From Glycera tridactyla (taxonomy: Eukaryota): DNA of 64,000 nt. Made by a program: the position numbers and the translations under genes. The stretch spans positions 41,416,001 to 41,480,000 of the forward strand of contig OZ286477.1 in assembly GCA_965644265.1 (NCBI GenBank), in the 5' to 3' direction. Positions 17,991-52,369 of this stretch are shown here, in pieces. The notes beneath the pieces are model-generated. The model saw only the letters and a program-made list of their open reading frames with translations. It was not told where the DNA came from and searched no databases. The stretch's first letter is position 1; every line of letters begins with the position of its first letter.

Positions 17991-19010
17991 CTTCTTTGCT
18001 GAGGCAGTCAATAGAATCTCTAACCCAACCAGGGGGTCCACAGATAAGGTGTACAATGCCCGATGGGAAATCTGGGACCAGTGGTGTGGGGACCATCGGG
18101 TTGATCTGGTTGATACATCACTGGCTATGATCATCGATTTTTTCTTTTTTCTGTGGGATGAAGGGAAGTCGGTTGAAACCTTGAAAGGTTATAAATCAGC
18201 TATGGCTTCATTTTTTTTGTCATTTTGACAAGCAAATATTTGATTCTAAAGACTTGAAATCCTTTTTTCGCAATATGTCTTTAGAGAGGCCGATTCACAG
18301 AAGTATTGTACCAGCCTGGAACTTGCCTATAGTTTCAAGGTTCTTAACGGGAGCTCCGTTTGAACCTCTTGATCAGGCAAGTTTGGAGTCCTTGACTATA
18401 AAGACCGTGTTTTTAAATGCGTTGGCATCTAAAAGCAGGAGGAGCGAGTTACATTCGTTATCTGGCAACCCTCAGGCGATTAGATCTACTCGCAGTCTTT
18501 CCAAGGTTACTCTGGTTTTCTGGCAAAGAATCAACCTCCAGATAAGGAAAGTCCTTTTATTCAGATACCGGCCTTGTCTACCACTGATGGTAGTGGTAAT
18601 GAGGCAACACTTTGTCCTGTTAGAGCTCTGAAGATTTACCTCGATAGGGTATCTCATTTTAGAGGAGACAGGAGATGGTTATTTCTTCCTATTTCTGAGA
18701 CAAGTAGGACAGAAATTAGAGGGGACAGGATCTCGAAATGGGTTCAAGATCTTGTTTTAAGAGCACACAGTCAGTCTGATGGTTATTCATGAGGAGAAAG
18801 AGTTTCTGCCCATGAGGTGAGAGCATTGGCCTCATCTTGGCGCATATTAGATAGGAACTCATCTTTGCATGAAAACATGCAATCAGCATATCGGAGGTCT
18901 GGGAACACTTTCGCTACCTTCTATCTGCATGATCTTTCTGGTCAAGCAATGGACTATATTCATTGGGACCATTAGTAGTGGGGCAACCGGTTGTTTTGCC
19001 TCCTGAGTAA
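17926..19010 (+). pseudogene. DIRS-A tyrosine recombinase ORF, disrupted
   Basis: SAM-like N-domain (VYNARWEIWDQWC, TLKGYKSA), VPAWNL, PFEPL, ALASKSRRSEL, LCPVRALKIY, SAHEVRALASSW, TFATFYLHDL, ending GPLVVGQPVVLPPE* at 19010. Split by stops and frameshifts. Confidence 0.92.
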
Positions 19011-19046
19011 TTTGAGCAATTTGCTCACCATCCGTGCTATATTTGG

Positions 19047-19394
19047 ATGCTAAATTTGAGGGAGAGACAGGGACGGTATTAACTAAACCCAGGTTTTTTA
19101 TGTAACCTGGCTGGTAATACCTACCTGTCTCTCCCTCAAATAGATGGACCCTCCCATTCGTCCCTGCTAATTGTTGTGAAAATACTCTGTGCGCATGCAT
19201 GGAAGTCGCCAGGTCACTAGTGAGGCATTAGCGGCACTAGCTGGCGGGAGGCAACGGGGAGGCATGGAGGTCCATCTAGTGAATTCTTCACTTTGTTGTG
19301 AAGTTCGAGCGTAGGTAGTAAGGCATGGGGAATGCTAAATTTGAGGGAGAAACGGGTAGGTATCAACAGCCAGGTTACATAAAAAACCTGGGTT
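19047..19394 (+). repeat. DIRS-A internal complementary region (19047-19141) and right terminal repeat (19332-19394)
   Basis: 19085-19141 (aacccaggttttttatgtaacctggctggtaatacctacctgtctctccctcaaat) is the near-perfect reverse complement of 19337-19394. The left half 19047-19080 resembles the terminal repeat. This is the canonical DIRS1 ICR/ITR layout. Confidence 0.9.
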
Positions 19395-19836
19395 GAATTA
19401 CACATGCGTCTGTATCTCATAGGATTCCCGGTATGTATATCAGGCTAGACCTTTACCGAGAACAAATTTCTCATACTGACTCGTATATCATACATCTAGC
19501 ACCCTCTTCGAGGGCAAGTTAGATTTGATACTTTTCAATTTTGGAGAGATGATTCCTATCTATGTTGTTGAATAAGAGACCGAGTGTCATGTGCAACCAA
19601 TCACAACATTATCCAAGAAGGCAGAAAGTCATTTCAAGATGTCAGGAAAGGGCAAAGCAATGCAGGAGATCCCCTGGAATGAAGTTACTTAAAAATCGCA
19701 ATAAGTCATAAGTATGGATCATCGAAAAATGGATGAGCTCTGGGAATGATGATCGTTGTGAGAGTCTAGAAAAGTTATGGTCATTATGAGGATGAATCTT
19801 GAAAGTTGAACACACTCATGAATCATGAAGAGAGTC

Positions 19837-22800
19837 ATCATCTATCTAGAATCAGATCGTTATTGGGTCTGGAACTAGGCGATGCTTTTCAAGTGATCAC
19901 CATATAGTGATGTTCAGCTATCAAGTGACGAAGGATGATAAACATTTCTAGGAAGGCAGAATCCTGCAAGTAATTGGATATCTGACTGAACGTCTGTCTA
20001 TCAGTATGAACACAATCTTTGCTGGTATCAGGCACTAGGCCATGCATGTCCAGGGGAAGTAGTGGTTCTGTCATACAGAAGGCTAATCAGAGGTCTGATA
20101 GAAGGTACACGCTGTGATGCCATTAAGGAGTCATTAGGCTGTGAGCGTGTACCCTGACCCCACCCCGTCCCCCTGTGTACATGCATTGTGATCTATGATG
20201 TACATCAAATCAATTATACAACTATGACCCCTTAATAATATTCCTCTCATTTCTGAACAAATGCCATAATCCATTCTGTTTTTGATTTGCTCTCAAGATT
20301 TCCCATTCTTGCTTCGAGCACTAATCATATCTGTAGTCGCATTTCTTGCCACCTTCTATGCCATATACAAATCATTCAATAAGACTCTGCAAATCTTCAC
20401 CATTGTTATAAATGGAAAGTCATCTCCTGACACATGGAATTCCCATAATTCTTCCATAATTCCGAAGCCCATCCTAATCATATACACATAAGTATTCACA
20501 TGGCTTCTTCAATTTCAAATATATGTATTTCTTCCATCCTGGTATGCATCAAAACTTCATCTGTCATTTTTTTTCCACCAACTCTGAACGGATTTCCGCC
20601 TAGTGGTTCGTCAACAATGAGATGGTGAAAAATGATCGGCATGCTCACAAAGCAGTTGGTATAATCTCGCTGTTTTGAACCTCATTTATGTTACGGTGCA
20701 TAGCTGCCGATATGATCGATCAATAGATAGAACTCAGCAGAGACAGATGGAGTATGATTGGATGCCTCGTTTTCGCCCAGTTTGTAATCATCTGTGACAG
20801 TACTTTGTAGGAGAGGAGAGCCTGATATTAATCAGAAAGAACACATTCATCTCGGACTCATCTGACCTGTCTCATTCGCTGTATCAATGAGCTGATCTCA
20901 TCAGAGTTTCGAAGAACCGGAGATGGGAGAATATGTACTGCCCAGCTGTGAGATATTGAAGGTAATCCCCGGTGGTGAAGTTTGTAATCTTCCGATATTT
21001 TTTTATTTATTTATCAGTAGGTTGCCTTCAAATTCTGGTCTCAAATTTCTGTATCTCACTCGTTTATCTCTAGAACCAGTAGGGGTGGATATGTGAATTA
21101 GCCCATACTTTTCTGACTAAAACGAACAAAGCATTCCCTATCAGAAGACAGTCTCGGTATCCACGATACTCGCAAAGGACTACGCATGAATTAGCAAGGT
21201 GAAAAACTGCAGTAAATGATGATTGCTCTGATGCACAAACTGTCCTCGTAATCCTGATGTGGAAATGACTTTGGAATGGAAAACAAAATCATGGTGAATG
21301 CGTTATACACACAAATCATCATGACCGTTACAGTAATCAGTTTAATCGCAATCTGTTCCAATTATCTTAGTTTCACCATCGAAGATATAATGACCGAAGC
21401 ATGGTATCAAGAAAGCATGGGATTCCCAGGAGACAGATCTCTAATTAGTAAAAAAGCAGAAAGATCTTGATTGCGGGAAGGACCAGGTGATGTCCTCTGA
21501 ATGATGACTAAATCCTGATGGTGAGGTGGCAGAACGGATGATGGTGATCCACATTTCTTGAGAGCCTCGATCCAAAAAGTAATTCTAATGTCTCAGTGAA
21601 AGGCAATTACTCTGAGGTTAATCCTGTTCTCTTATAGACCAAGCATATGAAACTGGTGATGTTGCTTTTGTGTATCAATGCAAGTAGCTCAACTCATGTC
21701 TGGGGGGGGGGGCAATTCATGCCATGACAGCCCTGGAGTAGTGTCACCATTAACGAGTCATTTTCTGCTTAGGGAATACCCTGCCCCCCTGTATGAATGG
21801 AGATGATACCAGTTTTACAACTCAGACCACCTAATCAACACTTGTCGACGCTTATCCATATTCGAATGCCAGTCATCCGACTTTTGAAAACTCACATCCT
21901 GAAGACATCTGAATCGCAAACTGAGTCATATGTGTTTCACTGCTATTATATATATTGCTGTCATCAGCCCATGACAGCACTTTTCACCAATGAAGAGATA
22001 CAGACTGTGGTCGAATATTGGAATTACAGAATTATAGTATTTTGGCCATGGTTGACTCCACAATGCCCTGATGAGAGCCGAAGCACAGACAGGTCTGGAC
22101 ATGTCTTAAGTTTCGAGAACCTAGGCAATTTCAGAATACATTTGAACATGTACGGTTCATCAGACTTTGTCATTTGCGGTGTTCCGCCAATTAGGAGATA
22201 GAAGAGTGTGAATGCCGTGATCTGGTTGCTGCTTCTGAAAAGATGTGACGGTGCCATCAGGAATGAGGTAAGGATTGAAACTTGGGTGATATGGCTGGAA
22301 ACATTTTTACCATTGTGAGATATCACACGGACAGCGAGAATCATCAGTCCTTGCATGGGCACCAACAACCATCACTGATTCACCCCAACTTGAATGATAC
22401 AAAGAGGCCATTTATCACAGGCACCCATTGTGTATGACTTCTCCCGGAGAGATGAACCAGACGCAATCATCATTATCTGTCAGAAGAGATAGGTTCAGAT
22501 ATACCTCGTCCAGTCGAGAGCTTGTCCACCATGACTCCATGTGGTAATATACAACAGAGGTTATGTGATCTAATATATTGTCATTTTGGCATGCTCACTA
22601 CTGTGCTTCATCCGTCTGTGACTTCCTGCCTGACTCTGTACATGCCTGTCTTACTGCCCAACTCTCTTCCCATCCTGCTGATGTTCAATTGTCCACCGAT
22701 CAGTCCATTAGATCATCAGTCCATTCATCAAATCATCCATTCACTCATCCATCCATTCATCTATCAGCCTGTCAATCTGTTCATTGGTTTGACTGCCTAC

Positions 22801-23189
22801 ATACCTGCCTGTCTCTCTGCCTGTCTGTCCGAATGTCTCTCCATTCATTTCTTATTTCACATGTCTTCAACTCCTCATGTTTGCGTCTTTCTGCCTATTG
22901 GTACACTTTCCTCCACCTTCTTCCCCCCCCCCCCTGGCTTCATTCATGTATCTATCTCTGTCTATGACTGTCGGCTCGAAGAAGAGGTCATCAGAAAACA
23001 GAGATATTTATCCCAATTGTTATAGTGACCCAGTGTCTAATGTACTGTCATTTCTTCTTCGATTACGGATATCCATCAACAGTGGAGGCTCTCATTAGTG
23101 ATGCACTTTTCCCACTCTAGATTGATGGCCATATAGAGAACTGCGATAAGTGATTTCCCGTATGAAAAAAGCAGTCTGTCTGTCTGTTT

Positions 23190-23220
<31 letters not shown>

Positions 23221-26200
23221 CCCTCTCTCTATTTTTATCTACTGCTGCCATCTAACCGTAACTATGGTGGTATCTGTCAGTGATGTCATCAATATATGTC
23301 AGTAATAATCTTGATGATCCAATGATGACGTCCTTTATAAAGGTCAGATGCCCGGCGGGGGGCATATCATCTCCCACGTCTCCACGGATCAATTCCATCA
23401 TCAGCGGCCAGGTCCCTCATCAGTCATGTCCATAGACGACTCTCGATGCCTCCCATACTAGATGACATATGTTGAGTGTGAGTCTGGTACCATGTGTGTT
23501 GGAGATACATATATCAGATTCATATATGAGCCACCTAGCTGTGGCTTGAGAGAGAAAGTGACTATTTGATGGACCTACCTCATATCCTGTGAAGTCAGAA
23601 AGGGACATCATTCGAAGTCTCACTTTCAGTCAGATGCAATATCTGATGCGTTGATCATAATTGTTACAAAAATCATTTTGATTGCAAGCTATAGATAGAA
23701 AAATACTTTTCAGAAATTTCTACAATGTCGGTTTCCAATCTCAGACTCACAAACCACAATTCCAACACAGTGGTAGCTCAGATACTGGTCGATTGTTTGA
23801 GTTGTGATACCTCCCAATGTCACCGATGCTTATCAACATCTGGCGTCCTTCATAAAGTTGACTTATATTGCTGCAATTGTTCCCCATTAGGCTGCTGAAA
23901 CCATTGGCACACCAGAGGTGAAGAATGGGGCCCCCATATTTTCCTACCTATCTTGAGCGGTGACGACTGCTGTCCTTCGTGAAAAGTAGGGACAGCTCCC
24001 AACAGCTGTGCTCCTCTTCTTCAGCAATTCTAGTTCTCCGTCTGATATAACTCAAGAAGTGTGAAAGGACGTCAAACCCATTCTAATAAACAAACATTCA
24101 TAATTGCTGGAATCATGATCAGATATGATTTAGTATGCCGAAACTTTACACATGCCTCATCGAGGACATTGACGGTCAGACTCCGGCTCTGATCATATGA
24201 AACAAAAGCCCACAAATGTTATGCTTCTTGGTGGTTGTCAAATGGCTTGATGATTTAATGACTGATATACGCATCTCATAATATTTGGTATGAGATATGG
24301 TGCATTATTATGTCCTCTGAGCACCAGGCCATTGGTATGTATTCCACTGATTTTTCACCTTCTGTGAAGCACTATAATTACGAGTTTATGACCATCCTTT
24401 GTTTATCGCATAAATGCGATACAACTTTCTGTGAAGCACTACAATTATGAGTTCATGACCATCCTTTGTTTATCGCATAAATGTGATACAACCTTCCCAA
24501 AAGACATCAAATATCACTCCACGGTTTCTTTAATGAATATCACACGATCAGGTATTCATGACGTATATTCCGATCTATCCTCATCGGATTATTATATTGT
24601 GATGCTGATTTCGGCTGCTAGCATTCCAGTGTGAGATGCTGATGGTGCGTATTGATTTTTTTGTTGTAGGTGAGATGTCACTCCATCTCAACTTGTCTTA
24701 CTCGAAATCGGTAAGATTTAGTTGAGGTATATGGCAAGTATCAGCCTAGTGGATTATGTATGGCATGCATTTCTTGTCAATTCAATGGAAGCTGGATGTG
24801 CTGTCCCTGCGTTTGTGTGTGATGGTTCATGTGTATGAGTGATCATGTGTGTTAATGTGAGTGATTTTGAGTGATGGAATAGAGGTCATTGTGTGAAAGA
24901 ATTAAACAGATGAGTGACCGTGTGTTGATATGTGAGTATTTGAGAATGTCTGTGAGTACCCACGACAATATGCATGTGAACGGATTTGTGCACGTATGGA
25001 TGAGATGGTTTGAGTGTGTGAGTGTATTACTGTGTGCATTCGTGTGTGCGTGCAACTGTGTGTTTGTGTGTGTGTGAGGCGGGCGTGTCTGTAAGTGTGT
25101 GCATGTGTTAGCTTCTGCATGCCTGTACGTGGAGGGAAATGAGTTCATCCATCTATGTCCCCCTTCTACAGAACCTAAAAATCGATTGAATTTGTAATGA
25201 ATATCTAAGATGAAGTGAGCATGAATAATTGTGCATATATCATGATACCGTAGCATTTCTCAACGGATCTTTGTTTTTCATGGGATGACTCAGTGGTACA
25301 TCGACCAGTAGACTTGACAGCATATTAGTAGTTGGGGGTAACATGCACAATGTATATAAGTTGAACACAAATGAGACAAGTGGGCTGAACCAGTTATCAC
25401 GTTCCCTGGCCAGGAATTTGTATGTGTGTCTATGTGTGTACCTCAAGGTATCTATCCATCCCTTCATCCATCCACCTATTCATTCCGCTGTACGTCTCTT
25501 CCCCAGTCTCCGCACTTGTTTGTCTCTACATTCATGCAATACAGAATAATCTGAGAGGGAGAGTTAGGCAGCTAGTGTAAGTTGGTGAGTGCATTATAAA
25601 TCACAAAGGGATGCAATCATAAGCAAACTGGATGTTAGAGGATGATAGGCGCCTTTCATAACAAGCTATTATTGGAAAACTATTAGAGCATGTATAACTC
25701 AAGCCCCAATGGGTAACTCAGTCTGTCTCTCTCATCAATGGCATCCATGGTCGGCCATCAGTAGCACATGTCATGTGTGTTGATCCTGATGTACTCTCAT
25801 CTTATCATAAATAGGCATCTGGTTGGTTATTGATGCATGTAATCACTTTTTTCAGGGCTACTACTAATTCGAAATCACTGAGAGCACATGTGAGCTGGAT
25901 GATATGGCAGTTGTTGTTACATACTTGATAGCAGCAAGGTTTTGTATTTAACCCTCTGTGAAGAGCTCGACGATGCTTGGAGTCATGGCAGGTGATATTG
26001 TTGCATGGGGGATAGCAGTGAACTGTTACAGCCATACTCTGTAGTTCAATGATCTGATCCTCTATGTTGTCATTGGTTGTAATAGCCATACATATCTCTC
26101 TTTGAAGACTGAATAGTTTTTGATATTATCTCTCCCCAAATATCATAACCTTCATGATTTCTTTATACATGTTATATTCAGAATGACTGTTTGGATCTAG

Positions 26201-27379
26201 ATGAACAACAGGTTCTCATCAAATTCGAAGACAGGTTAGTTTGATTCACAGTCATTCATATCCTACATGTTTTTGGAGTTGATAGTTGATATTTCCTAAC
26301 AAAACTCTCTGATTTGAATGATTTCTCATGCACTTTGCGTCATATCCTAGTGTCAATATTCGGTATGTATTGGCTATGAGTACAGCCGATTTTGTGATCA
26401 CTTTTGGGGATATCCAAAACATCCCCGAAACATAGGTCCATATTTCAATCCTGATGTGCTGACTGAATAAGTGAGCATGTGCTGGTGTGATCATACAGTG
26501 GCAGATTACGATGACACTGACTTATCGACCTCACAATACACCAGATGTAGTTTTCCAATGTGGAAGCTCGCATGTCTAAGGTCATAGTTTTACCTTCTGT
26601 CATGAAGCCAAACTGGGGTGGGGAATTACCTGATGATGCTTCCAAGGTCTATGACATGGTTGTTCTAATAAATGGTACCATTAGATCACCTTCCGTCACA
26701 GTCACAGCCCACACAGCAAACAGCGATTTAGTATTGAAGGGACCAATCTTAAGGGTGACCTGTCTGCAGACAGATGAATTAGTCATATTGTCGTGTAATT
26801 GATGATCCTCCGGTTCAAATTTGATATGCAGATATGATTTTCTGTGTTTAACAAGAGTTGAGATGGGAGAAAGTTGGTACACAATGAGGAACAAGCGAGA
26901 ATCATTGAGATGTTAATCCAATTTCCACCCACATCAGAAACTATAATGCACCATGTCAGGTGAATCTTGTGAGATATTGACAACCATTGTGTTAGCTCTT
27001 CTTGAGCAAAAACTGTCTTGTCTGAATACTATGCCATATATTCTCATCAATAAAAAGGATGAATGGAACCACAAATACAAGTTAATCAAACCTTCTGGTT
27101 TTAATAAGAAAGATGGATGAAGAAGTTTCGACTGAAAAGGGTTTAATGAAGAGACAGCCAGTGAAATACAAGAAAATTGAAAGTTGGTTTTTCAAAAAGG
27201 GCAAGCTTTTTGTCTTTCTCAATCAGAATCTGAATTGCTCGCCGATGACATTATCGTTGCTCAGCGGAATGCCATCTGATTTCACAGGCAGGAATCTGAA
27301 AGTCAGGAAATCAGGGGCATTTGCCTGAAAGTTGTAGCATTCTCTCTCATAAGCTGTGGACTGCAAATGCATGCTGAAG
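19837..27379 (+). repeat. Inverted repeat IR1, left arm (~7.5 kb)
   Basis: Reverse complement of 29882-37074. Inner coordinates sum to 57261 (ORF pairs 26560-26802 / 30459-30701 and 25805-26089 / 31172-31456). Confidence 0.97.
24364..24497. repeat. 67-bp tandem duplication (mirror ~32764-32897)
   Basis: gtgaagcacta...gatacaac at 24364 and 24431. Confidence 0.9.
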
Positions 27380-27526
27380 ATTTTGTGCTTTATATGAAAT
27401 CATCAGTGCAAATCAGATCGATTCAATCTGTCAAAGCTACTTCTCTGTTTCAAGAAAACGAGATACCATGAGATGGCTGGGACAAAAAATGGGTGAATGT
27501 CATTTTCAATCCTTGACTTTTTGGCG

Positions 27527-27870
27527 ACCCCCCCCCCCCTCCAGGTTTGTTCATCTAACCTGGGGTTCAATACTTACCCATTTCTCCCTAAAATTAAGCA
27601 TTCCCTGGGCCGATAGGCCTACGTGTGAACATCACAACTACACGAATAAAAATTTGTGAACTGAAACCTCCCTCTGCCGCCGCACTGAGCCACCAGGTGG
27701 CCACCACGCCAGGTCACTTCCTGTCTCCCTAACACCAACTTCTGAAGCGGGGCGGATGGGAGGGGGAATCAAATTTGAGGGAGAAATGGGTAAGTATTGA
27801 ACCCCAGGTTAGATGAACAAACCTGGGGGGGGGTTCAACTACTGTACCATTTCTCCCTTAAATTAAGCAT
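27527..27870 (-). repeat. DIRS-B 3' terminal repeat and ICR
   Basis: 27540-27595 (ccaggtttgttcatctaacctggggttcaatacttacccatttctccct) is complementary to 27777-27830 (agggagaaatgggtaagtattgaaccccaggttagatgaacaaacctgg). A second half-repeat catttctcccttaaattaagcat lies at ~27848-27870. Confidence 0.9.
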
Positions 27871-27879
27871 AGTATGCGC

Positions 27880-28390
27880 CATGGATGGTGGGCGTAGAAG
27901 CCTACACGCCGTGTCTCTCGGGTTCTAATACCTTCAGGAAGGTGAAATAAAAACAAGAATCCCCGAGAGACCCAGGGAGAGCATAAATCTCACTCCGGCG
28001 TCAGCCCGAGGCCTGTGCCAGTAGAAAGGCTGATAGATCCCACTGAGGGGTTGATTTCACTGACACTGGTCTTTCCAGCTCAAAGTTACTCTGTAAAGCT
28101 TTCATGTCGCGACTGTTCACAACGTTTCACGAAGTATACATGAAAACTAACTGAAGCGCGTTCCTATAGCCCCAGATGGTAGCCGGTCGAAGTCCAGACT
28201 CAAAGAACTCAGCTGCATCTGGGGAAGAGGGATTCTTCGGATCCACTCTCTGGGATTCACACCAGAAGCACCACTTCTTCCATCTGGCATTATACACGCG
28301 TTCAGAGGAGGGGTGGATAGAAGATGAGATCCGCTCAACTGCCTTTGTCGAGTTATCTTTGCTGGAGAGGGCACCCCCTACAGACACCAC
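27880..28390 (-). pseudogene. DIRS-B tyrosine recombinase remnant
   Basis: VYNARWKKWCFWC, TIWGYRNAL, TPQWDL joined directly to AFLLAQASG*RRSEIYAL. The PFEP segment and most of the catalytic C-terminus seen in DIRS-A are missing. Confidence 0.85.
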
Positions 28391-29881
28391 GCGGTCAGAT
28401 TCATGACCTGTGGTCTGAAATGATGTACCCTTCTTCCCTGTACCAGAAGATCAGAAGATTCCTCGGAACAGATAGCTCCCGAGGAAGATCGATAGATAGC
28501 TGGGAACCATGACTGATTCGGCAACCAAGGGGCAATGCAAATCAGTATGGTCTCCAGTACCCTGAAATGGTTGATCACGTCTCTGATTGAGGCTGTGGGA
28601 GGGAAGACGTAGGCAACCTGAAACTGATCTCAAGGAGTTGACAGTGCGTCCACTGACAGAGCTCCTTGAGCCGGAAAAGGGCAAATGAACACGGGAAGCC
28701 TCTTGTTCAGAGGGGTTGCCATCAGATCGACAGTGGGCGAGAGGTTGAATGATTGTAGGACTCGAAGAAAAACTGACGTGTCGAGTTCCCACTCTGTATT
28801 TACTGGTTTCGATCTTGACAGAGCGTCTGCCAAGATGTTTTGTTTTCCTGGTATATGTTTGACCAGAATAAACGCAGACAACTTTTCCATCAGCATAAAG
28901 ATCATCCAAGCAAGGCCACACAACGGAGCTGAATGAGTGCCGCCCTGCTTGGACAAATAAGCCACAGCTGTGGCATTGTCTGAAAGAATCAGAACTGTAT
29001 GACCGCTGATGTGAACAGAAAACTCTTTCAAGGCCAGATAGATGGCCTTGAGTCCCAAGGCATTGATTGAGTGGCTTCTCCTGACTAGAGGCCACTCCCC
29101 CAAAACCTGCCTTAGATCCTCTCCCACTGTCAGATGGGCTCCCCAACCTGTCAATGACGCATCCGTTGTTAACGTCAGTGTTGACTGACGAGGACATAAC
29201 GATACTCCCTGATATATATTGTTCTCGACTCTCCACCAAGAAATAATATGCAAAACTTCTTGGGGTATGATAACCATCTGTTCCAGAGAATCCATAAACG
29301 GTCTCCACTGAGACAGCAGAGCCATCTGGATTGGGCGCATATACAAATGACCCAGGTGCACAAGGTCCGAAAGACTGGACATGTGGCCCAAAAGCTTGAG
29401 GATCGCTCTGGCTGGCTGCCGAGGCCTGCGAAGAAATACTTTGACAGCCAGAATCAACCTGTCCACCCTCTTCAATGCCAGATGAACAAAACCCAGGTGA
29501 GTGTCTAATTCTATCCCTAGGTAAGTAAAGGACTGACTCGGTGATAGATCCGACTTCGCAAGATTGACTATCCACCCGAGTTCGGTCGCCAGCTCGAGGA
29601 CATATTGAAGCTGAATCTAGAAAATTTCTGGATCTTGGTGCCTCAGCAACCAGTCGTCCAGATAGAAATTAACCTTGTTTCCCTGTTCATGCAGATGGTG
29701 CGCCAGCTCCCGAAGAACAATAGTAAAGACTCTTGGTGCTGTATCCAGTCCAAAAGGAAGGACTCGAAACTGATGAGCCTCCTCTTCGGACACCGCAAAG
29801 TGCAGATATTTTCGATATTCTGGATTTTTTGGCACATGGGAATATGCGTCTTTTAAGTCGACGGAGACGATGGAGACGGTC
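28378..29881 (-). pseudogene. DIRS-B RT/RNase H/methyltransferase ORF
   Basis: ORFs 29617-29835, 28630-29475 and 28378-28578 lie in one frame, separated by only two nonsense codons (29617, 28630). The frame is cut at 29881 just upstream of the DLKDAY motif. Confidence 0.93.
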
Positions 29882-32800
29882 CTTCAGCATGCATTTGCAG
29901 TCCACAGCTTATGAGAGAGAATGCTACAACTTTCAGGCAAATGCCCCTGATTTCCTGATTTTCAGATTCCTGCCTGTGAAATCAGATGGCATTCCGCTGA
30001 GCAACGATAATGTCATCGGCGAGCAATTCAGATTCTGATTGAGAAAGACAAAAAGCTTGCCCTTTTTGAAAAACCAACTTTCAATTTTCTTGTATTTCAC
30101 TGGCTGTCTCTTCATTAAACCCTTTTCAGTCGAAACTTCTTCATCCATCTTTCTTATTAAAACCAGAAGGTTTGATTAACTTGTATTTGTGGTTCCATTC
30201 ATCCTTTTTATTGATGAGAATATATGGCATAGTATTCAGACAAGACAGTTTTTGCTCAAGAAGAGCTAACACAATGGTTGTCAATATCTCACAAGATTCA
30301 CCTGACATGGTGCATTATAGTTTCTGATGTGGGTGGAAATTGGATTAACATCTCAATGATTCTCGCTTGTTCCTCATTGTGTACCAACTTTCTCCCATCT
30401 CAACTCTTGTTAAACACAGAAAATCATATCTGCATATCAAATTTGAACCGGAGGATCATCAATTACACGACAATATGACTAATTCATCTGTCTGCAGACA
30501 GGTCACCCTTAAGATTGGTCCCTTCAATACTAAATCGCTGTTTGCTGTGTGGGCTGTGACTGTGACGGAAGGTGATCTAATGGTACCATTTATTAGAACA
30601 ACCATGTCATAGACCTTGGAAGCATCATCAGGTAATTCCCCACCCCAGTTTGGCTTCATGACAGAAGGTAAAACTATGACCTTAGACATGCGAGCTTCCA
30701 CATTGGAAAACTACATCTGGTGTATTGTGAGGTCGATAAGTCAGTGTCATCGTAATCTGCCACTGTATGATCACACCAGCACATGCTCACTTATTCAGTC
30801 AGCGCATCAGGATTGAAATATGGACCTATGTTTCGGGGATGTTTTGGATATCCCCAAAAGTGATCACAAAATCGGCTGTACTCATAGCCAATACATACCG
30901 AATATTGACACTAGGATATGACGCAAAGTGCATGAGAAATCATTCAAATCAGAGAGTTTTGTTAGGAAATATCAACTATCAACTCCAAAAACATGTAGGA
31001 TATGAATGACTGTGAATCAAACTAACCTGTCTTCGAATTTGATGAGAACCTGTTGTTCATCTAGATCCAAACAGTCATTCTGAATATAACATGTATAAAG
31101 AAATCATGAAGGTTATGATATTTGGGGAGAGATAATATCAAAAACTATTCAGTCTTCAAAGAGAGATATGTATGGCTATTACAACCAATGACAACATAGA
31201 GGATCAGATCATTGAACTACAGAGTATGGCTGTAACAGTTCACTGCTATCCCCCATGCAACAATATCACCTGCCATGACTCCAAGCATCGTCGAGCTCTT
31301 CACAGAGGGTTAAATACAAAACCTTGCTGCTATCAAGTATGTAACAACAACTGCCATATCATCCAGCTCACATGTGCTCTCAGTGATTTCGAATTAGTAG
31401 TAGCCCTGAAAAAAGTGATTACATGCATCAATAACCAACCAGATGCCTATTTATGATAAGATGAGAGTACATCAGGATCAACACACATGACATGTGCTAC
31501 TGATGGCCGACCATGGATGCCATTGATGAGAGAGACAGACTGAGTTACCCATTGGGGCTTGAGTTATACATGCTCTAATAGTTTTCCAATAATAGCTTGT
31601 TATGAAAGGCGCCTATCATCCTCTAACATCCAGTTTGCTTATGATTGCATCCCTTCGTGATTTATAATGCACTCACCAACTTACACTAGCTGCCTAACTC
31701 TCCCTCTCAGATTATTCTGTATTGCATGAATGTAGAGACAAACAAGTGCGGAGACTGGGGAAGAGACGTACAGCGGAATGAATAGGTGGATGGATGAAGG
31801 GATGGATAGATACCTTGAGGTACACACATAGACACACATACAAATTCCTGGCCAGGGAACGTGATAACTGGTTCAGCCCACTTGTCTCATTTGTGTTCAA
31901 CTTATATACATTGTGCATGTTACCCCCAACTACTAATATGCTGTCAAGTCTACCGGTCGATGTACCACTGAGTCATCCCATGAAAAACAAAGATCCGTTG
32001 AGAAATGCTACGGTATCATGATATATGCACAATTATTCATGCTCACTTCATCTTAGATATTCATTACAAATTCAATCGATTTTTAGGTTCTGTAGAAGGG
32101 GGACATAGATGGATGAACTCATTTCCCTCCACGTACAGGCATGCAGAAGCTAACACATGCACACACTTACAGACACGCCCGCCTCACACACACACAAACA
32201 CACAGTTGCACGCACACACGAATGCACACAGTAATACACTCACACACTCAAACCATCTCATCCATACGTGCACAAATCCGTTCACATGCATATTGTCGTG
32301 GGTACTCACAGACATTCTCAAATACTCACATATCAACACACGGTCACTCATCTGTTTAATTCTTTCACACAATGACCTCTATTCCATCACTCAAAATCAC
32401 TCACATTAACACACATGATCACTCATACACATGAACCATCACACACAAACGCAGGGACAGCACATCCAGCTTCCATTGAATTGACAAGAAATGCATGCCA
32501 TACATAATCCACTAGGCTGATACTTGCCATATACCTCAACTAAATCTTACCGATTTCGAGTAAGACAAGTTGAGATGGAGTGACATCTCACCTACAACAA
32601 AAAAATCAATACGCACCATCAGCATCTCACACTGGAATGCTAGCAGCCGAAATCAGCATCACAATATAATAATCCGATGAGGATAGATCGGAATATACGT
32701 CATGAATACCTGATCGTGTGATATTCATTAAAGAAACCGTGGAGTGATATTTGATGTCTTTTGGGAAGGTTGTATCACATTTATGCGATAAACAAAGGAT

Positions 32801-35800
32801 GGTCATGAACTCATAATTGTAGTGCTTCACAGAAAGTTGTATCGCATTTATGCGATAAACAAAGGATGGTCATAAACTCGTAATTATAGTGCTTCACAGA
32901 AGGTGAAAAATCAGTGGAATACATACCAATGGCCTGGTGCTCAGAGGACATAATAATGCACCATATCTCATACCAAATATTATGAGATGCGTATATCAGT
33001 CATTAAATCATCAAGCCATTTGACAACCACCAAGAAGCATAACATTTGTGGGCTTTTGTTTCATATGATCAGAGCCGGAGTCTGACCGTCAATGTCCTCG
33101 ATGAGGCATGTGTAAAGTTGCGGCATACTAAATCATATCTGATCATGATTCCAGCAATTATGAATGTTTGTTTATTAGAATGGGTTTGACGTCCTTTCAC
33201 ACTTCTTGAGTTATATCAGACGGAGAACTAGAATTGCTGAAGAAGAGGAGCACAGCTGTTGGGAGCTGTCCCTACTTTTCACGAAGGACAGCAGTCATCA
33301 CCGCTCAAGATAGGTAAGAAAATATGGGGGTCCCATTCTTCACCTCTGGTGTGCCAATGGTTTCAGCAACCTAATGGGGAACAATTGCAGCAATATAAGT
33401 CAACTTTATGGAGGACGCTAGATGTTGATAAGCATCGGTGACATTGGGAGGTATCACAGCTCAAACAATCGACCAGTATTTGAGCTACCACTGTGTATAC
33501 TCAGTCGTAGTTTGTGGGAGATGATATGCCCCCCGCCAGGCATCTGACCTTTATGAAGGACGTCATCATTGGATCATCAAGATTATTACTGACATATATT
33601 GATGACATCACTGACAGATACCACCATAGTTACGGTTAGATGGCAGCAGTAGATAAGAATAGAGAGAGGGAGAGAGCAAGAGAGAGAGAAAGAGAGAGAG
33701 AGAAAACAGACAGACAGAATGCTTTTTTCATACGGGAAATCACTTATCGCAGTTCTCTATATGGCCATCAATCTAGGGTGGAAAAAGTGCATCACTAATG
33801 AGAGCCTCCACTGTTGATGGATATCCGTAATCGAAGAAGAAATGACAGTGCATTAGACACTGGGTCACTATAACAATTCCTGGCATGATCTTTTGGGATA
33901 AATATTTCTGTTTTCTGATGACTTCTTCTTCGAGCCGACAGTCATAGACAGAGATAGATACATGTATGAAGCCATGGGGGAAAAAAGGTGGAGGAAAGTG
34001 TACCAATAGGCAGAAAGACGCAAACATGAGGAGTTAAAGACATGTGAAATAAGAAATGAATGGAGAGACATTCGGACAGACAGACAGAGAGACAGGCAGG
34101 TATGTAGGCAGTTAAACCAATGAACAGATTGACTGGCTGATAGATGAATGGATGGATGGGTGAATGGATGATTGGATGAATGGACTGATGATCTGATGGA
34201 CTGATCGGTGGACAATTGTACATCAGCAGGATGGGAAGAGAGTTGGGCAGTAAGACAGGCATGTACAGAGTCAGGCAGGAAGTCACAGACGGATGAAGCA
34301 CAGTAGTGAGCATGCAAAAATGACAATATATTAGATCACATAACCTCTGTTGTATATTACCACATGGAGTCATGGTGGACAAGCTCTCGACTGGACGAGG
34401 TATATCTGAACCTATCTCTTCTGAAAGATAATGATGATTGCGTCTGGTTCATCTCTCCGGGAGAAGTCATACACAATGGGTGCCTGTGATAAATGGCCTC
34501 TTTGTATCATTCAAGTTGGGGTAAATCAGTGATGGTTGTTGGTGCCCATGCAAGAACTGATGATTCTCGATGTCCGTGTGATATCTCACAATGGTAAAAA
34601 TGTTTCCAGCCATATCACCCAAGTTTCAATCCTTACCTCATTCCTAATGGCACCGTCACATCTTTTCAGAAGCAGCAACCAGATCACGGCATTCACACTC
34701 TTCTATCTCCTAATTGGCGGAACACCGCAAATGACAAAGTCTGATGAACCTTACATGTTCAAATGTATTCTGAAATTGCCTAGGTTCTCGAAACTTAAGA
34801 CATGTCCAGACCTGTCTGTGCTTCGGCTCTCATCAGGGCATTGTGGAGTCAACCATAGCCAAAATACTATAATTCTGTAATTCCGATATTCGACCACAGT
34901 CTGTATCTCTTCATTGGTGAAAAGTGCTGTCATGGGCTGATGACAGCAATATATATAATAGCAGTGAAACACATATGACTCAGTTTGCGATTCAGATGTC
35001 TTCAGGATGTGAGTTTTCAAAAGTCGGATGACTGGCATTCGAATATGGATAAGCGTCGACAAGTGTTGATTAGGTGGTCTGAGTTGTAAAACTGGTATCA
35101 TCTCCATTCATACAGGGGGGCAGGGTATTCCCTAAGCAGAAAATGACTCGTTAATGGTGACACTACTCCAGGGCTGTCATGGCATGAATTGCCCCCCCCC
35201 CCAGACATGAGTTGAGCTACTTGCATTGATACACAAAAGCAACATCACCAGTTTCATATGCTTGGTCTATAAGAGAACAGGATTAACCTCAGAGTAATTG
35301 CCTTTCACTGAGACATTAGAATTACTTTTTGGATCGAGGCTCTCAAGAAATGTGGATCACCATCATCCGTTCTGCCACCTCACCATCAGGATTTAGTCAT
35401 CATTCAGAGGACATCACCTGGTCCTTCCCGCAATCAAGATCTTTCTGCTTTTTTACTAATTAGAGATCTGTCTCCTGGGAATCCCATGCTTTCTTGATAC
35501 CATGCTTCGGTCATTATATCTTCGATGGTGAAACTGAGATAATTGGAACAGATTGCGATTAAACTGATTACTGTAACGGTCATGATGATTTGTGTGTATA
35601 ACGCATTCACCATGATTTTGTTTTCCATTCCAAAGTCATTTCCACATCAGGATTACGAGGACAGTTTGTGCATCAGAGCAATCATCATTTACTGCAGTTT
35701 TTCACCTTGCTAATTCATGCGTAGTCCTTTGCGAGTATCGTGGATACCGAGACTGTCTTCTGATAGGGAATGCCTTGTTCGTTTTAGTCAGAAAAGTATG

Positions 35801-37074
35801 GGCTAATTCACAGATCCACCCCTACTGGTTCTAGAGATAAACGAGTGAGATACAGAAATTTGAGACCAGAATTTGAAGGCAACCTACTGATAAATAAATG
35901 AAAAAATATCGGAAGATTACAAACTTCACCACCGGGGATTACCTTCAATATCTCACAGCTGGGCAGTACATATTCTTCCATCTCTGGTTCTTTGAAACTC
36001 TGATGAGATCAGCTCATTGATACAGCGAATGAGACAGGTCAGATGAGTCCGAGATGAATGTCTTCTTTCTGATTAATATCAGGCTTTCCTCCCCTATAAA
36101 GTACTGTCACAGATGATTACAAACTGGGCGAAAACGAGGCATCCAATCATACTCCATCTGTCTCTGCTGAGTTATATCTATTGATCGATCATATCGGCAG
36201 CTATGCACCGTAACATAAATGAGGTTCAAAAGAGCGAGATCATACCAACTGCTTTGTGGGCATGCCGATCATTTTTCACCATCTAATTTTTGACGAACCA
36301 CTAGGCGGAAATCCGTTCAGAGTTGGTGGGAAAAAAAATGACAGATGAAGTTTTGATGCATCCCAGGATGAAACAAATACATATATTTGAAATTGAAGAA
36401 GCCATGTGATTACTTATGTGTATATGATTAGGATGGGCTTCGGAATAATGGAAGAATTATGGGAATTCAGCTTTTGAAGTTCCATGTGTCAGGAGATGAC
36501 TTTCCATTTATAACAATGGTGAAGATTTGCAGAGTCTTATTGTATGATTTGTATACGACATAGAGGGTGGCGAGGAAGGCGACTATAGATATGATTAGTG
36601 CTTGAAGCAAGAATGGAAAATCTTGCGAGAAAATCAAAAACAGAATGGATTATGGCATTTGTTCAGAAATGAGAGGAATATTATCAAGGGGTCATAGTTG
36701 TATAATTGATTTGATGTACATCATAGATCACACTGCATGTACACAGGGGGACGGGGTGGGGTCAGGGTACAGCCTAATGGCTCCTTAATGGCATCACAGC
36801 GTGTACCTTCCATCAGACCTCTGATTAGCCTGCTGTATGACAGAACCACTACTTCCCCTGGACATGCATGGCCTAGTGCCCGATACCAGCAAAGATCGTG
36901 TTCATACTGATAGACAGACGTTCAGTCAGATATCCAATCACTTGCAGGATTCTGCCTTCCTAGAAATGTTTATCATCCTTCGTCACTCGATAGCTGAACA
37001 TCACTATATGGTGATCACTTGAAAAGCATCGCCTAGTTCCAGACCTAATAACGATCTGATTCTAGATAGATGAT
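29882..37074 (-). repeat. Inverted repeat IR1, right arm (~7.2 kb)
   Basis: Mirror of 19837-27379. It lacks 23378-23750. The match ends at tctagatagatgat (37061-37074). Confidence 0.97.
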
Positions 37075-37204
37075 AACCATTAAGACAATATATCATTGTC
37101 TATACTTTCCAAGTAATGGTGGGATGACTTTCAGGATATACCTAGACCCCGTCATGAAATTTCGAGAATTGGTGAAAACTGCATCAATTACTTGAGATGG
37201 TAGA

Positions 37205-40200
37205 ATTATGTGCTGATGTCGGAACAATACACAGCTTCCATTATGAGAGGATGAGTTATGATGTGTTGCAATAATGCAAGTTGGTGATACAGTATTCATC
37301 ACCCAGACAACATGATTACATTATCATATTGCCCCTTACAACCTCATGACAGGCCTCTGTACATTAACATCCGATTATGTGCATCGTCTCTACAGTATAT
37401 GCCAGTCTGGCTCTGATATGCATATGGTGCAAATACAGCAATGATGTGGCTCAAGGGAGGAGAGCAATTTCTCATTCCATGAATTCAAAAAGTGTCAATC
37501 TAGCTTTTTAAACTCAATGTCAATGTTCCATCTTTAGATATCCTTATTGAGCCCTAAATCAAAATAATCCGTTTTCAGTTCTATTCGGAGATCACCACTC
37601 TTGTCCCCCAAGATAATCATCAACAACATCAAGTTATATATGCGCTGGAGCTTGGATGCATCTTTTCAGATTTTTTCGTAGCATTTCATCATTCTGTTTA
37701 TCCTCCTATCTGGCCATCCATAATCCCATCCATACACCCTTTTCTCCATCATTCTATCCCTCATTCCTCAATCCCCCGATTCACCGAACCACCCTCACAT
37801 ACATCTGCTCTATGCACGCACCGAACCACCTAACCACTACCCTATTGAGGGATTTTCTTCAGATTAAAGGGTAACACGAAAAAGTGGATCACATATCCGC
37901 CTGTCAAACCACCAGTTGAACACAATTTCATTCGAATCATCATTGTCATTCTCTTGTTGCATACAGGTCAGACTTGTCAGACTATATTCACTCATATTTC
38001 TGAAGAATATGAAGGTGACAGCCAGTTAGGAGAAGCCAACATGAAAACAGTCTTCAATTTGGTTCCTGTAAAATCATCACTGATATATTCATTTGAAGTT
38101 GAATCGCTCAGTCATGATATGCATTATGGATCTGCTTGTTTGGATTTCAAATGTTGACATTTCGTTACCACTTCTGCTATCCACAAAGGGTAGAGAACTG
38201 CCCCGCAGTAGTACCCCTTCCTTCAACGTTCACAATTCTTTGGTCAGATATGATCCAAAAGTGTTGCAAGGAAGTCAAAGCTGGACAAAGAAACAGACTG
38301 GAATGAGCCAATTTTCATATCACCGACAATGTCACCATCACCAAAAGTGAACCAAACCACTACGATCATACCTTTGCTTCTTTCACCACAGTCAACCTGA
38401 TGGTGTGCATTGCCGAAATATGTGTATTGAATGATAGCATTCTGCCCTGAATTATTGTGTGTGACCATCACTTAAGGTATTGAAATTCCGTGCATAGCGA
38501 GGCATTCATTTTCGGCCGATGTCATGACATATACCAACCCACCGTCTGCAAGCTCAACAAACTTGTTCATCCTCCTTCTTTTTCGACCCCAGCAGCGAAA
38601 GATACCATTACAGGTATGTAGGAAATTTTATTGATCAATGCTGTAGAGGGTTGACTTATTCAGGTCAGACTCACATGTGCTACGTTGTGATGCCCATGCA
38701 ATTAGCACGCATGGGGTCATACAAACTCAAACTTTTGGTTCCCAAATGTAAGTTGAGGATTAACGAAATATGTTTACAGGGTATAGTCACACACTTCCTA
38801 AGACTTACTCACTTGTACACTTTGGAAAGAGTACTCATGATTCGAGTTTCGAGACTCATAAAAGCAGTAAGATGTGGCGTTGTGTCCGTCAGCTGGTTGA
38901 AGGCCCCCTGCTTTGATCGGAATGTCTGCCCTCCACCTAAATGATGGAGGAGGGCAAGTCGGACGTAATAATTGGAAGTACACATGGTGTTGAGAGTATA
39001 TAGCAACTTAAAATGTGGATTCTCATCTGAACCAAATTAATTCAAATATTCTTTCATTTCATGATAATGCGGAGCTGCTGGTTTTTTAGCTGAGTCGTGC
39101 TCCTCCATTACCAGACATGAAAAATGCTGCACATTGCTGGATATCTGAATTATTGACTTTATCAGTAGTAATTGTTGGTTTATGCCTTATAGAATATGTG
39201 TCCGATCTCATCTTCGCTCCTCCTCGGCAGGTGTTCTGATTCAGCCTACTCAAGTGCAGAAAGTGGACTTAAAACGGTAACATTTAATTTTTTCAGATAT
39301 GGAAACATAGCATGTCCCCAGAAACTTTCATCTCCACACATTGATGTCGTTACTTCGGGCATATGCGGTCTATGTCAGCATCTAATCTAATGCTAAATTA
39401 GCATTATTTGCATATTTCTCCGATCAGTAGGCTCACCAGGAGCTGATTGAGATTACCTATTGCATAAACAGAGCCAACACAAGACTAACCAGTGATTCGC
39501 CAGCGGTAATCAGGTGAATGTACGCGAGTTTCATTATACTGTAGCCATCAGAGATTATGTGATTATCAAAAGAATTGCACAACTGCTTATTATTGAGAGN
39601 NNNNNNNNNNNNNNNNNNNNNNNNNNNNNNNNNNNNNNNNNNNNNNNNNNNNNNNNNNNNNNNNNNNNNNNNNNNNNNNNNNNNNNNNNNNNNNNNNNNN
39701 NNNNNNNNNNNNNNNNNNNNNNNNNNNNNNNNNNNNNNNNNNNNNNNNNNNNNNNNNNNNNNNNNNNNNNNNNNNNNNNNNNNNNNNNNNNNNNNNNNNN
39801 NNNNNATCATCATTATCATCAACACCATCATCACCACCAGTATTCCGTCGAGTCAGCCATTTCTCGGTATACCAATGCGAATTCAGCCAGCTTTCGTGCT
39901 ACAGACGGAACCCATCTATTATAGTATCCCGACAGGGACGATCTCTTGGGATGGTGTCGAAGAATGTTGTACCCTAATCTGGCTGAAAAATACCCATTTG
40001 TTTCTTCATAAATGCTATGTCTTGGGTTTTTCTGAACAGCTGCAGCATCAGCAGAAGCAGCTGTTGCGGCAGCAGCAACATCGTCATCATCTCGTTGATT
40101 CAGGTGTTCCTTGGCAACCCGAAGCCAATATAGCCACGAGTCTAGCTGCTCACGAGACCCCTCCAACATGTTATCCTGACATGGACAGTCTCAGGAGGAG

Positions 40201-40600
40201 GAACAACTTCATCATCCTCGCCCTCATCGTCATAGTCACTGTCATTGTCATCGTCGTCATCAACGACAACTGTGATCAGTGTGACAGCGACAACATCAGA
40301 AGCAGAAGAGCGGCAATAATTTCAACAATGGAAAGATGGACAGCGGTAGCCGAGAAATCCTCCGAAATAGGATCGAGACCTTTGTGTATCATCTTGCCAA
40401 GAGGCAAGAACACTCACAAGGGTCATGTGCGCTGAAATATTTGACTTTGGGAGTGAGCCCTCATTGTGCCACCTTGTCTATCCCAAGATACTTTGCTCAG
40501 AAGTATGTCAATCGTGGGCAGATATGGGTCAGTCGAAATTTCCCCTAGTAGACATCCTGGAAAATCATCAGAGCTCGCATGTCGATGATGAGTTTCAGGG
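37205..40600 (+). repeat. Further diverged direct paralogue (delta) of ~44730-46530
   Basis: 37210-37380 matches 44735-44920, 38975-39140 matches 45395-45560, and 39490-39585 matches 45845-45935. Weaker similarity at 40440-40490 to 46476-46520. Confidence 0.75.
39208..39285 (+). mobile_element. 5'-truncated copy of the same SINE
   Basis: tcatcttcg.tcctcctcggcaggtg...agcctactcaagtgcag.aagtggac.taaa matches 62619-62690. Confidence 0.75.
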
Positions 40601-41193: not shown

Positions 41194-41360
41194 CATTCGA
41201 ACCTCCCTATAAAGACCGCCTTCGGTCGCACCGAAAAGTGGCCTTTATATGGAGGTGGTCTTTATAGATAGGTCATCTACTGTAGAAAATAATACCACAG
41301 TCGCAGTTCAGGGCGGTCTTTATAGGGAGGAGGGCTTTATAGAGAGGTGGTCTTTAGCAT
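41194..41360. mobile_element. pogo-like MITE, one end truncated
   Basis: TA followed by cattcgaacctccctataaagacc. Repeated internal ggtctttatag(a/g)gagg motifs are complementary to the left end. No complete right TIR. Confidence 0.65.
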
Positions 41361-47200: not shown

Positions 47201-47260
47201 GATGGATGGATGGATGGATGAATTGATAGGTGCATCGTTGGATGGATGGAAGGAAGGAAG

Positions 47261-51085: not shown

Positions 51086-51089
<4 letters not shown>

Positions 51090-52367: not shown

Positions 52368-52369
52368 GA

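Follow-up and report, generated by a model that had tools for sequence, protein, structure and literature searches.

Two back-to-back palindromes at a DIRS-like element of Glycera tridactyla, possibly the halves of one rearrangement

The palindrome IR1, folded around part of an old DIRS-like element in Glycera tridactyla, abuts to the base (37074–37077) a second palindrome, IR2 (37074–66708), and the two form a pair of back-to-back mirror duplications of 47 kb. Positions are those of the window, the whole stretch of 64,000 nucleotides that was analysed (contig OZ286477.1, 41,416,001 to 41,480,000 of the forward strand). IR2 was absent from the first-pass annotation, which had described IR1. 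We favour, at about an even chance, a reading in which both palindromes are halves of one recent break-repair event in an old DIRS copy, with the outer native arms later exchanged or copied from the homologue. The rearrangement is interstitial (41.4 Mb on a 79.3-Mb contig), with ancestral sequence resuming at the IR2 spacer.

IR1 is formed by inverted arms at 19834–27379 (7546 bp, forward strand, called A) and 29882–37077 (7196 bp, reverse strand, called A') around a spacer of 2502 bp, which bears out the arm sizes of 7.5 and 7.2 kb and the spacer length given in the first-pass annotation. A is the native copy in its ancestral context, old local paralogues crossing both of its ends (19734–20315 at 81% and 27320–27525 at 84%), and A' is the derived inverted copy. 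The earlier description of the arms as exact mirrors does not hold, since they differ by 89 substitutions in 7146 columns and by six small indels. Their identity is 96.6% over the outer 3.6 kb and 99.64% over the inner 3.6 kb; the near-identical inner tract (24142–27379, forward strand) contains 4 substitutions in 3238 bp, compared with 85 in 3908 bp farther out (Fisher P 5e-18). Comparison with an old paralogue reveals two independent deletions at 23377–23764 (forward strand), short in the left arm and long in the right. The 17 bp exclusive to the right arm at this place were considered as junction filler, an idea that was dropped because they match the paralogue and are therefore ancestral.

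IR1 is far beyond chance expectation, and no comparable low-copy inverted repeat was found in 10 DIRS-centred blocks of 40 kb, six arbitrary blocks of 100 kb, and two far flanks. Besides a 135-bp repeat, a 1-kb piece of arm has no matches beyond the other arm and two nearby paralogues at 70%. A Foldback or long-TIR transposon was also considered and rejected: the arms are not dispersed, target-site duplications are absent at 19834/37077 and at 19834/66708, and the left outer end is ancestral sequence with no insertion junction.

The left arm of IR2 (B', 37074–51736, reverse strand) is a derived inverted copy of 55766–66708, with patches from 0.1% to about 15% divergent and several one-sided indels. 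The native right arm (B, forward strand) occupies 55766–64000 and runs beyond the window to 66708 (contig 41,482,708). Between them, the spacer s2 (51737–55765, forward strand) is mostly the ancestral single-copy continuation; its inner junction, J3, is not base-resolved, the visible arm ends bordering N. The near-identical inner tract of IR2 (49244–51736, reverse strand) holds 3 substitutions in about 2400 readable bp and one 42-bp microsatellite length change. At the other two junctions the assembly is gap-free and base-resolved. J1 (29861–29882) has 1 bp of microhomology and an imperfect 9-bp local tandem duplication, of undated age, a few bases inside the DIRS side. J2 (37074–37077) joins the outer end of A to the outer end of B, also with 1-bp microhomology, and cuts a dispersed repeat that is intact across the native end of B at 66708. 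A transposon end at J2 was dropped as a candidate, the join lying about 120 bp inside the repeat.

The paralogues, which read through across 19834, 27379, and on to 52381, give the ancestral order as U-A-f-[DIRS-B site]-s2-B-V, where f is an unduplicated ancestral flank and DIRS-B is the element cut at J1. The present order, U-A-f-DIRS-B(3')|A'|B'|s2-B-V, contains three junctions that are new. The paralogue order thus implies that 29882–51736 is a single inverted, circularly permuted copy (A'B') that replaced the 5' half of DIRS-B. High-identity copies number two of A and two of B, A and B being different sequences; an inserted dimeric inverted circle was discarded, as B and A were not joined in the ancestral order. 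A single young event is supported by the order and read-through of the paralogues, by the dispersed repeat, which J2 cuts at 37074 and which is whole across 66708, and by the base-exact abutment of the two palindromes. The region itself is an old tandem array of roughly 25–30-kb units, adjoined by older palindromes (IR3, 86–92%; IR4, 65–82%), and one paralogue carries an inversion at the homologous site.

Two other explanations bear on this architecture. A tandem duplication of a roughly 25–30-kb unit, followed by an inversion that spanned the duplication junction and deleted sequence at either breakpoint, would account for J2, which is exactly a tandem-duplication junction in reverse, and would be in keeping with the pair of older tandem paralogues upstream, which are spaced about 27 kb. 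We consider it unlikely, as it requires further multi-kb deletions at both centres and still leaves the near-identical inner tracts to be explained by conversion. Still more improbable, in our opinion the least credible of all on the evidence of the assembled sequence, would be an assembly artefact, in which a second haplotype or fold-back chimeric reads entered the scaffold. Patchy divergence does resemble that of two haplotypes, and at least one near-identical 6-kb duplicate is found both on a small contig (C60) and on a chromosome (C39). Yet J1 and J2 are continuous to the base, a haplotig would retain the A-s-B order rather than a circular permutation with three joins, and chimeric fold-back reads would yield identical arms instead of the substitutions and independent deletions observed. 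The search for alleles in small contigs (three stretches and one further flank) returned three dispersed repeats and one near-identical duplicate.

Both innermost tracts, each abutting its spacer, are about 0.12% divergent (4/3238 and 3/~2400 substitutions), and farther out the divergence is patchy, from 0.2 to 15%. In IR2 the step at 49243 is abrupt, about 30 substitutions in 190 bp giving way to near identity, and patches of 6–15% divergence span 1–2.5 kb with several indels; the oldest patches (7–15%) are about as old as DIRS-B. IR3, which is older and has a shorter spacer (1.8 kb), lacks a homogenised centre (6–12% per 200 bp).

Such a pattern might also be read as the same architecture at an old age (about 7–15%), perhaps built stepwise, IR2 first and then IR1 with J2, and subsequently homogenised by arm-to-arm gene conversion, latest in tracts that reach the spacers, J1 being possibly a later deletion in which the 5' half of DIRS-B was lost. 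This is a serious but rather doubtful possibility. It would fit the markedly uneven divergence along the arms (chi-square P 9e-16 for IR1 and 8e-40 for IR2), the abrupt step at 49243, the independent deletions in each arm, and the older palindromes next door; moreover, inverted repeats kept by conversion (PMC1803023, PMC6790999) and spacer growth through secondary deletion (PMC10766186) have been reported. However, it requires two independent conversions of the same age, each stopping at a spacer, and IR3 has no such tract; kb-sized spacers are also described as making central hairpins unlikely outside long single-stranded DNA (PMC7999016, PMC10164571). No donor arm is evident, either in IR1, where the differences polarised with one paralogue divide 17 vs 10 (P 0.25), or in IR2 (31 vs 22 and 17 vs 23). 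An identity mosaic is also expected from allelic exchange, and for this reason it is not diagnostic of a palindrome maintained by conversion.

The single young event that we prefer would have started with a break within DIRS-B followed by resection. The left end would have folded back over about 2.5 kb to copy A outward and the right end over about 4 kb to copy B outward, the two copies then being end-joined at J2; alternatively to two fold-backs, one strand might have switched template three times. The arms would have been identical at the start. Those parts of the native arms beside the new junctions would have remained linked to them, their 0.12% divergence giving the age of the event, and the outer native arms would have been swapped for other alleles by ordinary crossing-over, or copied from the homologue, leaving the patchy divergence. 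The copying of allelic sequence during template-switch duplications has been described (PMC12616954).

Several observations argue for this young event: the equal divergence of the inner tracts at both spacers and of the sequence on either side of J2 (85/3908 vs 37/1955, P 0.5), the unhomogenised centre of IR3, whose spacer is shorter, and spacer sizes like those reported for human fold-backs (median 3,428 bp, PMC3907307). In addition, a search of the 264-kb neighbourhood with the 5' part of a DIRS-B relative gave matches only at the 3' inverted repeat. Against it, the 6–15% patches of IR2 look high and long for alleles, J3 is unreadable, and the inner tracts are judged equally old from 4 and 3 differences. 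A further point against it is the 1-bp microhomology at J1 and J2, below the 2–8 bp given for most human fold-back junctions (PMC3907307). We tentatively suggest, with somewhat less confidence than the single event itself, that a two-ended break with both ends folding back and their copies joined produced twin palindromes without a dicentric step, at a locus that repeatedly spawns inverted duplications. If this were true, the identity step at each spacer would be the linkage clock of a young polymorphic rearrangement and not gene conversion, and it would caution against taking every centre-high palindrome as maintained by conversion.

As the first-pass annotation stated, the left arm of IR1 continues through about 150 bp of flank (f, 27380–27530, forward strand, the left part of the spacer, 84% to a paralogue) into the 3' end of a DIRS-like element, and the right arm begins abruptly at 29882 within the RT frame, before DLKDAY. 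DIRS-B (27533–29881, reverse strand) is the 3' 2.35 kb of an old DIRS1-like copy, with a cut RT, RNase H, an overlapping ORF, and 3' inverted repeats; missing are the 5' part and, near the 3' end (3' ORF), about 0.7 kb. J1 cuts it at the W codon of the motif W-T-V-S-I-D-L-K-D-A-Y in the RT frame, which is present in six related copies. Its RT–RNase H frame is 72% identical in amino acids to that of a young copy, which matches RVT_1 at 8e-21, and RNase H Pfam matches on 28633–29616 lie below the curated cut-offs. The second ORF (28451–29668), which overlaps the RT frame, is 56% identical in amino acids to a 902-aa frame of the young copy. At the 3' end of DIRS-B there is an inverted pair of 62 bp at 96.8% (near 27534–27833), and 155 bp match the 5' end of a related copy at 89%; a 3' inverted terminal repeat with an internal complementary region is described as a DIRS hallmark (PMC3266345). 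With an RT–RNase H pol frame, this 3' ITR/ICR, and a long overlapping second ORF, DIRS-B has these features of a DIRS1-like element. On the question of a tyrosine recombinase, the 3' ORF of the young copy and of DIRS-A gave no Pfam or PDB match, and DIRS-B lacks about 0.7 kb there. A methyltransferase hit was likewise absent from the Pfam scans.

DIRS-B shows 3.5% decay at positions that do not vary among 11 other copies, and the nearest relative found differs from it by 6.6%, which makes DIRS-B far older than the 0.12% inner arm tracts. The annotation held that the duplication came after the DIRS-B insertion. This order is likely, given the decay and the fact that the flanks now bracketing the whole 22-kb inverted block are only about 235 bp apart in a paralogue, which makes a 6-kb DIRS-B the likelier target; it is nevertheless unproven, since the oldest IR2 patches are about as old as DIRS-B and a later deletion might have created the 29881/29882 junction. 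The break or template switch proposed inside the element stands in so far as the junction lies within it, but what lies there is half of a three-junction rearrangement and not a free-standing fold-back.

A DIRS link to the rearrangement, which had also been raised, is unsupported. DIRS-B itself acting through a tyrosine recombinase or its own inverted termini is, we think, very unlikely, even if J1 lies inside it, DIRS-A ends near the outer end of the left arm, the region is DIRS-rich, and a role of DIRS1 in favouring non-homologous recombination has been proposed for Trematomus (PMC5941688). DIRS-A (16705–19399, forward strand), a separate and more distant relic outside the rearrangement (RT 45% identical in amino acids to DIRS-B), ends about 435 bp from the outer end of the left arm, practically the 440 bp first reported; it too is 5' truncated within RT, yet without a palindrome. 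DIRS integration is described as working through the junction of the ITRs (PMC3266345); J1 lies instead in RT, not in ITR/ICR, and the inner end of the arm falls 150 bp beyond the terminus. The element is decayed and incomplete, and J2 cuts a different repeat. None of the 10 DIRS-centred blocks has flanking arms, which bounds the palindrome rate around DIRS only to below about 26%. DIRS-like sequence covers 13,984 of 264,000 bp of the region (5%), compared with 714 bp in 400 kb of arbitrary blocks and none in 200 kb (40% identity cut), so that DIRS and palindromes co-occur regionally; at the local cover, the chance that at least one of six junction ends falls in DIRS is 28%. A chain found at relaxed settings in block C1:49.23 Mb was set aside as two different DIRS copies in opposite orientation (67–76%), as was an apparent inverted duplication inside DIRS 120–130 kb downstream (two different copies, 66% alike). 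No report of DIRS-linked palindromes was found in a literature search judged by titles and abstract openings. There is thus no evidence here for DIRS elements making palindromes, and DIRS-B looks like a bystander, merely the site of the break.

No genes were recognised in the arms. Among 130 frames of at least 62 aa (7.2–16.5 kb, the left IR1 arm, and 37–55.6 kb) there were no convincing Pfam hits and two sub-threshold ones, a search that short exons would escape; 18 longer frames had no convincing Pfam match apart from DIRS RNase H, and no Rfam families were found in the window. From these searches the arms look non-coding, and no function is implied. In our opinion, the value of the locus is modest, that of a well-resolved natural three-junction inverted duplication in a large animal genome, with outgroups built in as old tandem paralogues. 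Allelic exchange near a young rearrangement can be put to the test here in place of gene conversion, the usual reading of near-identical palindrome centres.

The rearrangement is of a known kind. Conversion-maintained palindromes, as described for human Y P8 (PMC6790999) and Caenorhabditis inverted gene pairs (PMC1803023), are alike in their long arms, short spacer, and near-identical parts, and in new palindromes arising beside old ones; those are gene-bearing and old by orthologues, whereas no gene was recognised in the present arms. Inverted triplications of the ODIRA or DUP-TRP/INV-DUP type, also in eroded form (Brewer et al. 2024, PMC10766186), likewise present two nearby palindromic centres with spacers enlarged by secondary loss. 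There, however, the inverted middle arm of a triplication is common to both palindromes, while here A and B are distinct, with two copies of each instead of three of one. Fold-back inverted duplications (Hermetz et al. 2014, PMC3907307; Al-Zain et al. 2023, PMC10622511) share the unduplicated spacer, 2.5 and 4 kb here against a median of 3.4 kb, perhaps a short local templated insertion at a junction, and the loss of sequence at the break. The 2502-bp spacer is within the 15 kb that delimits inv-dup-del cases (PMC3907307); such cases are marked by 2–8 bp of inverted microhomology, repeat homology, or a junction insertion, and J1 has 1 bp of microhomology with the imperfect 9-bp duplication alongside. 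The described cases involve a single folding end and a dicentric intermediate, with loss of the chromosome end; IR1 and IR2, in contrast, are interstitial, keep the DNA of both sides, and show no terminal deletion. Copy-and-paste clusters of the local n-jump type (Li et al. 2020, PMC7025897) and the DUP-NML-INV/DUP and DUP-INV-DUP variants (PMC6902434, PMC12616954) are alike in having two segments, on either side of single-copy DNA, duplicated locally, in mixing inverted and non-inverted junctions, and in being explained by template switching. DUP-NML-INV/DUP is described with two junctions; the present case has three, the two duplicated segments being inverted as one, with a central deletion. 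Compared with these variants, it stands in an animal reference assembly, where divergence has already begun.

All results come from one assembly (2.04 Gb, 207 contigs; window G000:C51:41,416,001–41,480,000), with coordinates extended beyond the window ends where needed. In self-comparison the first palindrome, IR1, has two inverted arms of 7546 and 7196 bp around a spacer of 2502 bp, in agreement with the first-pass annotation. The arms, which had been described as exact mirrors, differ by 89 substitutions in 7146 columns and by six small indels. An outer block (19834–23377 versus 33514–37077) is 96.6% identical and an inner one (23765–27379 versus 29882–33496) 99.64%; substitutions are concentrated outward, with 85 over the outer 3908 bp against 4 over the inner 3238 bp (Fisher P 5e-18). 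At 23377–23764 the left arm has 388 bp and the right arm 17 bp; each arm has suffered its own deletion, because an old paralogue shows both pieces to be ancestral. The spacer is formed by 150 bp of flank and the 3' 2.35 kb of a DIRS1-like retrotransposon, DIRS-B, on the minus strand, so that the left arm does continue through flank into the DIRS-B 3' end, as first read. The abrupt start of the right arm in the DIRS reverse transcriptase (RT) was also recovered, within a W codon upstream of DLKDAY. This junction, J1 (29881/29882), has 1 bp of microhomology and an adjoining imperfect 9-bp local duplication. The arm DNA is low-copy, a target-site duplication is absent at the rearrangement's ends, and Pfam and Rfam scans of frames and bases recognised no cellular gene or RNA.

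The rearrangement is larger than first described. A second palindrome, IR2 (37074–51736 versus 55766–66708, visible spacer 4029 bp), was overlooked and begins at the exact base where IR1 ends. This region consists of an old tandem array, in which two paralogous units lie upstream (~−48 to −27 kb and −21 to +7 kb) and are 65–87% identical; in all, three old units of ~27–30 kb extend from ~−48,600 to 59,400 on C51, with no recognised gene. The paralogues are colinear through 19734–20315, to 27525 and then, after ~235 bp, into 52381–59374; therefore the IR1 left arm (A) and the IR2 right arm (B) are the native copies. A dispersed repeat is intact across 66708. At 37074, by contrast, the repeat is interrupted ~120 bp from where it begins, and its join to the start of A shows 1 bp of microhomology. 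Because of this read-through and of the repeat, the ancestral order is reconstructed as U-A-f-[DIRS-B]-s2-B-V and the present one as U-A-f-DIRS-B(3')/A'/B'/s2-B-V (U and V, outer flanks; f, flank beside DIRS-B; s2, IR2 spacer; primes, derived copies; slashes, new junctions). The net change is thus the gain of a single 22-kb copy, inverted and circularly permuted, which brings three new junctions. The sequence of the third junction is unreadable, since IR2's inner ends, as far as visible, border N. Searched against the 264-kb neighbourhood, 5' sequence from a DIRS-B relative matched nothing but the DIRS-B 3' inverted repeat.

Other inversions are present nearby. The nearer paralogous unit has its own ~1.6-kb inversion (413–2014) at its homologue of the IR1/IR2 centre, where 1603–2020 is inverted relative to 26943–27290 and a (GTCT)n tract lies in both paralogues. 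An older inverted duplication, IR3 (65966–68634/70481–72512; 86–92%), overlaps the right end of IR2, as does an older, nested anti-diagonal at 64765–94288 (64.8–69.8 versus 90.5–94.3 kb; 65–82%). The locus has produced inverted copies at several ages.

We regard IR1/IR2 as real at the level of the assembly. The sequence argues against a haplotig or chimeric reads, because J1 and J2 (37074–37077) are gap-free, the copy is circularly permuted and each arm has independent mutations. Elsewhere, a small contig (C60:10001–16000) is nearly identical to C39:76,569,863–76,575,862 along the 6 kb compared and is possibly redundant. Beside a DIRS copy, C11:45,105,686–45,121,885 holds direct repeats ~12 kb apart (3778 bp at 100%, 598 bp at 99.8%), either a very young insertion or an assembly duplication.

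IR2 is a mosaic. Its outer 2 kb differ by 0.6–3.3% per 500 bp, and most of 39–49 kb by 6–11%, with a patch of 1.3–1.9%; just outside 49243 there are ~30 substitutions in 190 bp, and from there to the spacer 3 in ~2400 bp. The inner tracts of IR1 and IR2 are equally divergent at 0.12% (P 1.0, small counts), differences that polishing could have flattened. Both sides of J2 are equal at 2% (85/3908 versus 37/1955, P 0.5). The young age of the inner tract is confirmed by a minisatellite at 50297–51019 and 56525–57247 (46-bp unit, 15.7 units, 88% between units), which has equal copy number in the two IR2 arms and differs between them by one substitution. DIRS-B is 6.6% from the nearest relative found and deviates at 26 of 736 sites invariant in 11 other aligned copies (3.5%; 0–0.6% in young family members), and is therefore much older than the inner tracts. 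Its proposed insertion before the duplication is likely when set against these tracts and the visible IR1 arm divergence (at most 4.5% per 500 bp), but less so against the most diverged IR2 patches, which are about as old.

The architecture, the junction sequences and the loss of the DIRS-B 5' part are established from sequence; the repair steps are what we infer. A break in DIRS-B would be followed by resection; the two ends would fold back over 2.5 and ~4 kb and be extended outward by copying 7.5 and 11 kb, after which the copies would be end-joined. One strand with three template switches would give the same product. The spacer sizes fit human fold-back junctions, for which PMC3907307 gives a median of 3,428 bp, although the human junctions mostly show 2–8 bp of microhomology against 1 bp at J1 and J2. 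We prefer a young event to an older origin. Only in the ancestral chromosome were the two spacers adjacent, so that two inner tracts of the same young age point to a single event there. Crossing-over would then swap the native arms with standard alleles except next to the junctions, where we would expect differences of order twice the mutation-to-recombination ratio, i.e., a few (4 and 3 observed). The same pattern would result if the homologue had served as template, allelic copying being described for template-switch duplications (PMC12616954). A close rival is an old duplication with patchy gene conversion (PMC1803023, PMC6790999): kb-long patches of 6–15% would be much for alleles, whereas the centre of neighbouring IR3 (spacer 1846 bp) is not homogenised. 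Tandem duplication, then inversion and deletions, is a lesser rival to the young event.

A DIRS role, earlier held conceivable, is not favoured. In ten 40-kb blocks centred on other DIRS copies, the flanking DNA never formed a long inverted repeat (0/10; upper 95% bound 26%); five of these copies were the closest DIRS-B relatives and five came from a more distant, mostly young group. DIRS-A, a separate relic (16705–19399), is also cut 5' within the RT, yet without a palindrome. Moreover, DIRS recombination is placed at the ITR junction in PMC3266345, whereas J1 lies in the RT. DIRS-like coding sequence makes up 13,984 bp of the surrounding 264,000 bp, which gives a 28% chance of a hit in DIRS among the six junction ends (19% over 464 kb). 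Pointing the other way, arbitrary blocks are far poorer in DIRS (714 bp/400 kb; 0/200 kb), and two far flanks held no inverted repeats; around the locus DIRS and inverted duplications are both abundant. This can be accounted for by a gene-poor, permissive setting without DIRS as a cause, though the sample is small; for Trematomus, a part for DIRS1 in rearrangements has been put forward (PMC5941688). Across many contigs, older DIRS subfamilies coexist with a young, high-copy family, whose five sampled members lie within ~2% of each other and have long open frames.

The inverted repeat found in one of six arbitrarily chosen 100-kb blocks is a multi-copy 7.7-kb element (C4:70,089,167–70,096,912) with 2-kb inverted ends (98.8%), copies of which are arrayed on C18, C51 and C47 at a period of 6629 bp. 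Its frames of 214–503 aa have no Pfam match; one resembles what we take to be an N-terminal motif of Penelope-like elements.

Among known systems, IR1/IR2 does not fit an inv-dup-del, as it shows no terminal loss, nor an inverted triplication as described in PMC10766186, having two copies and no shared arm, nor a foldback transposon, its arms being low-copy and lacking a target-site duplication. The locus behaves like a fold-back/template-switch inverted duplication and belongs with the local n-jump complex variants of PMC7025897: a rearrangement ordinary in kind, and real in the assembly.
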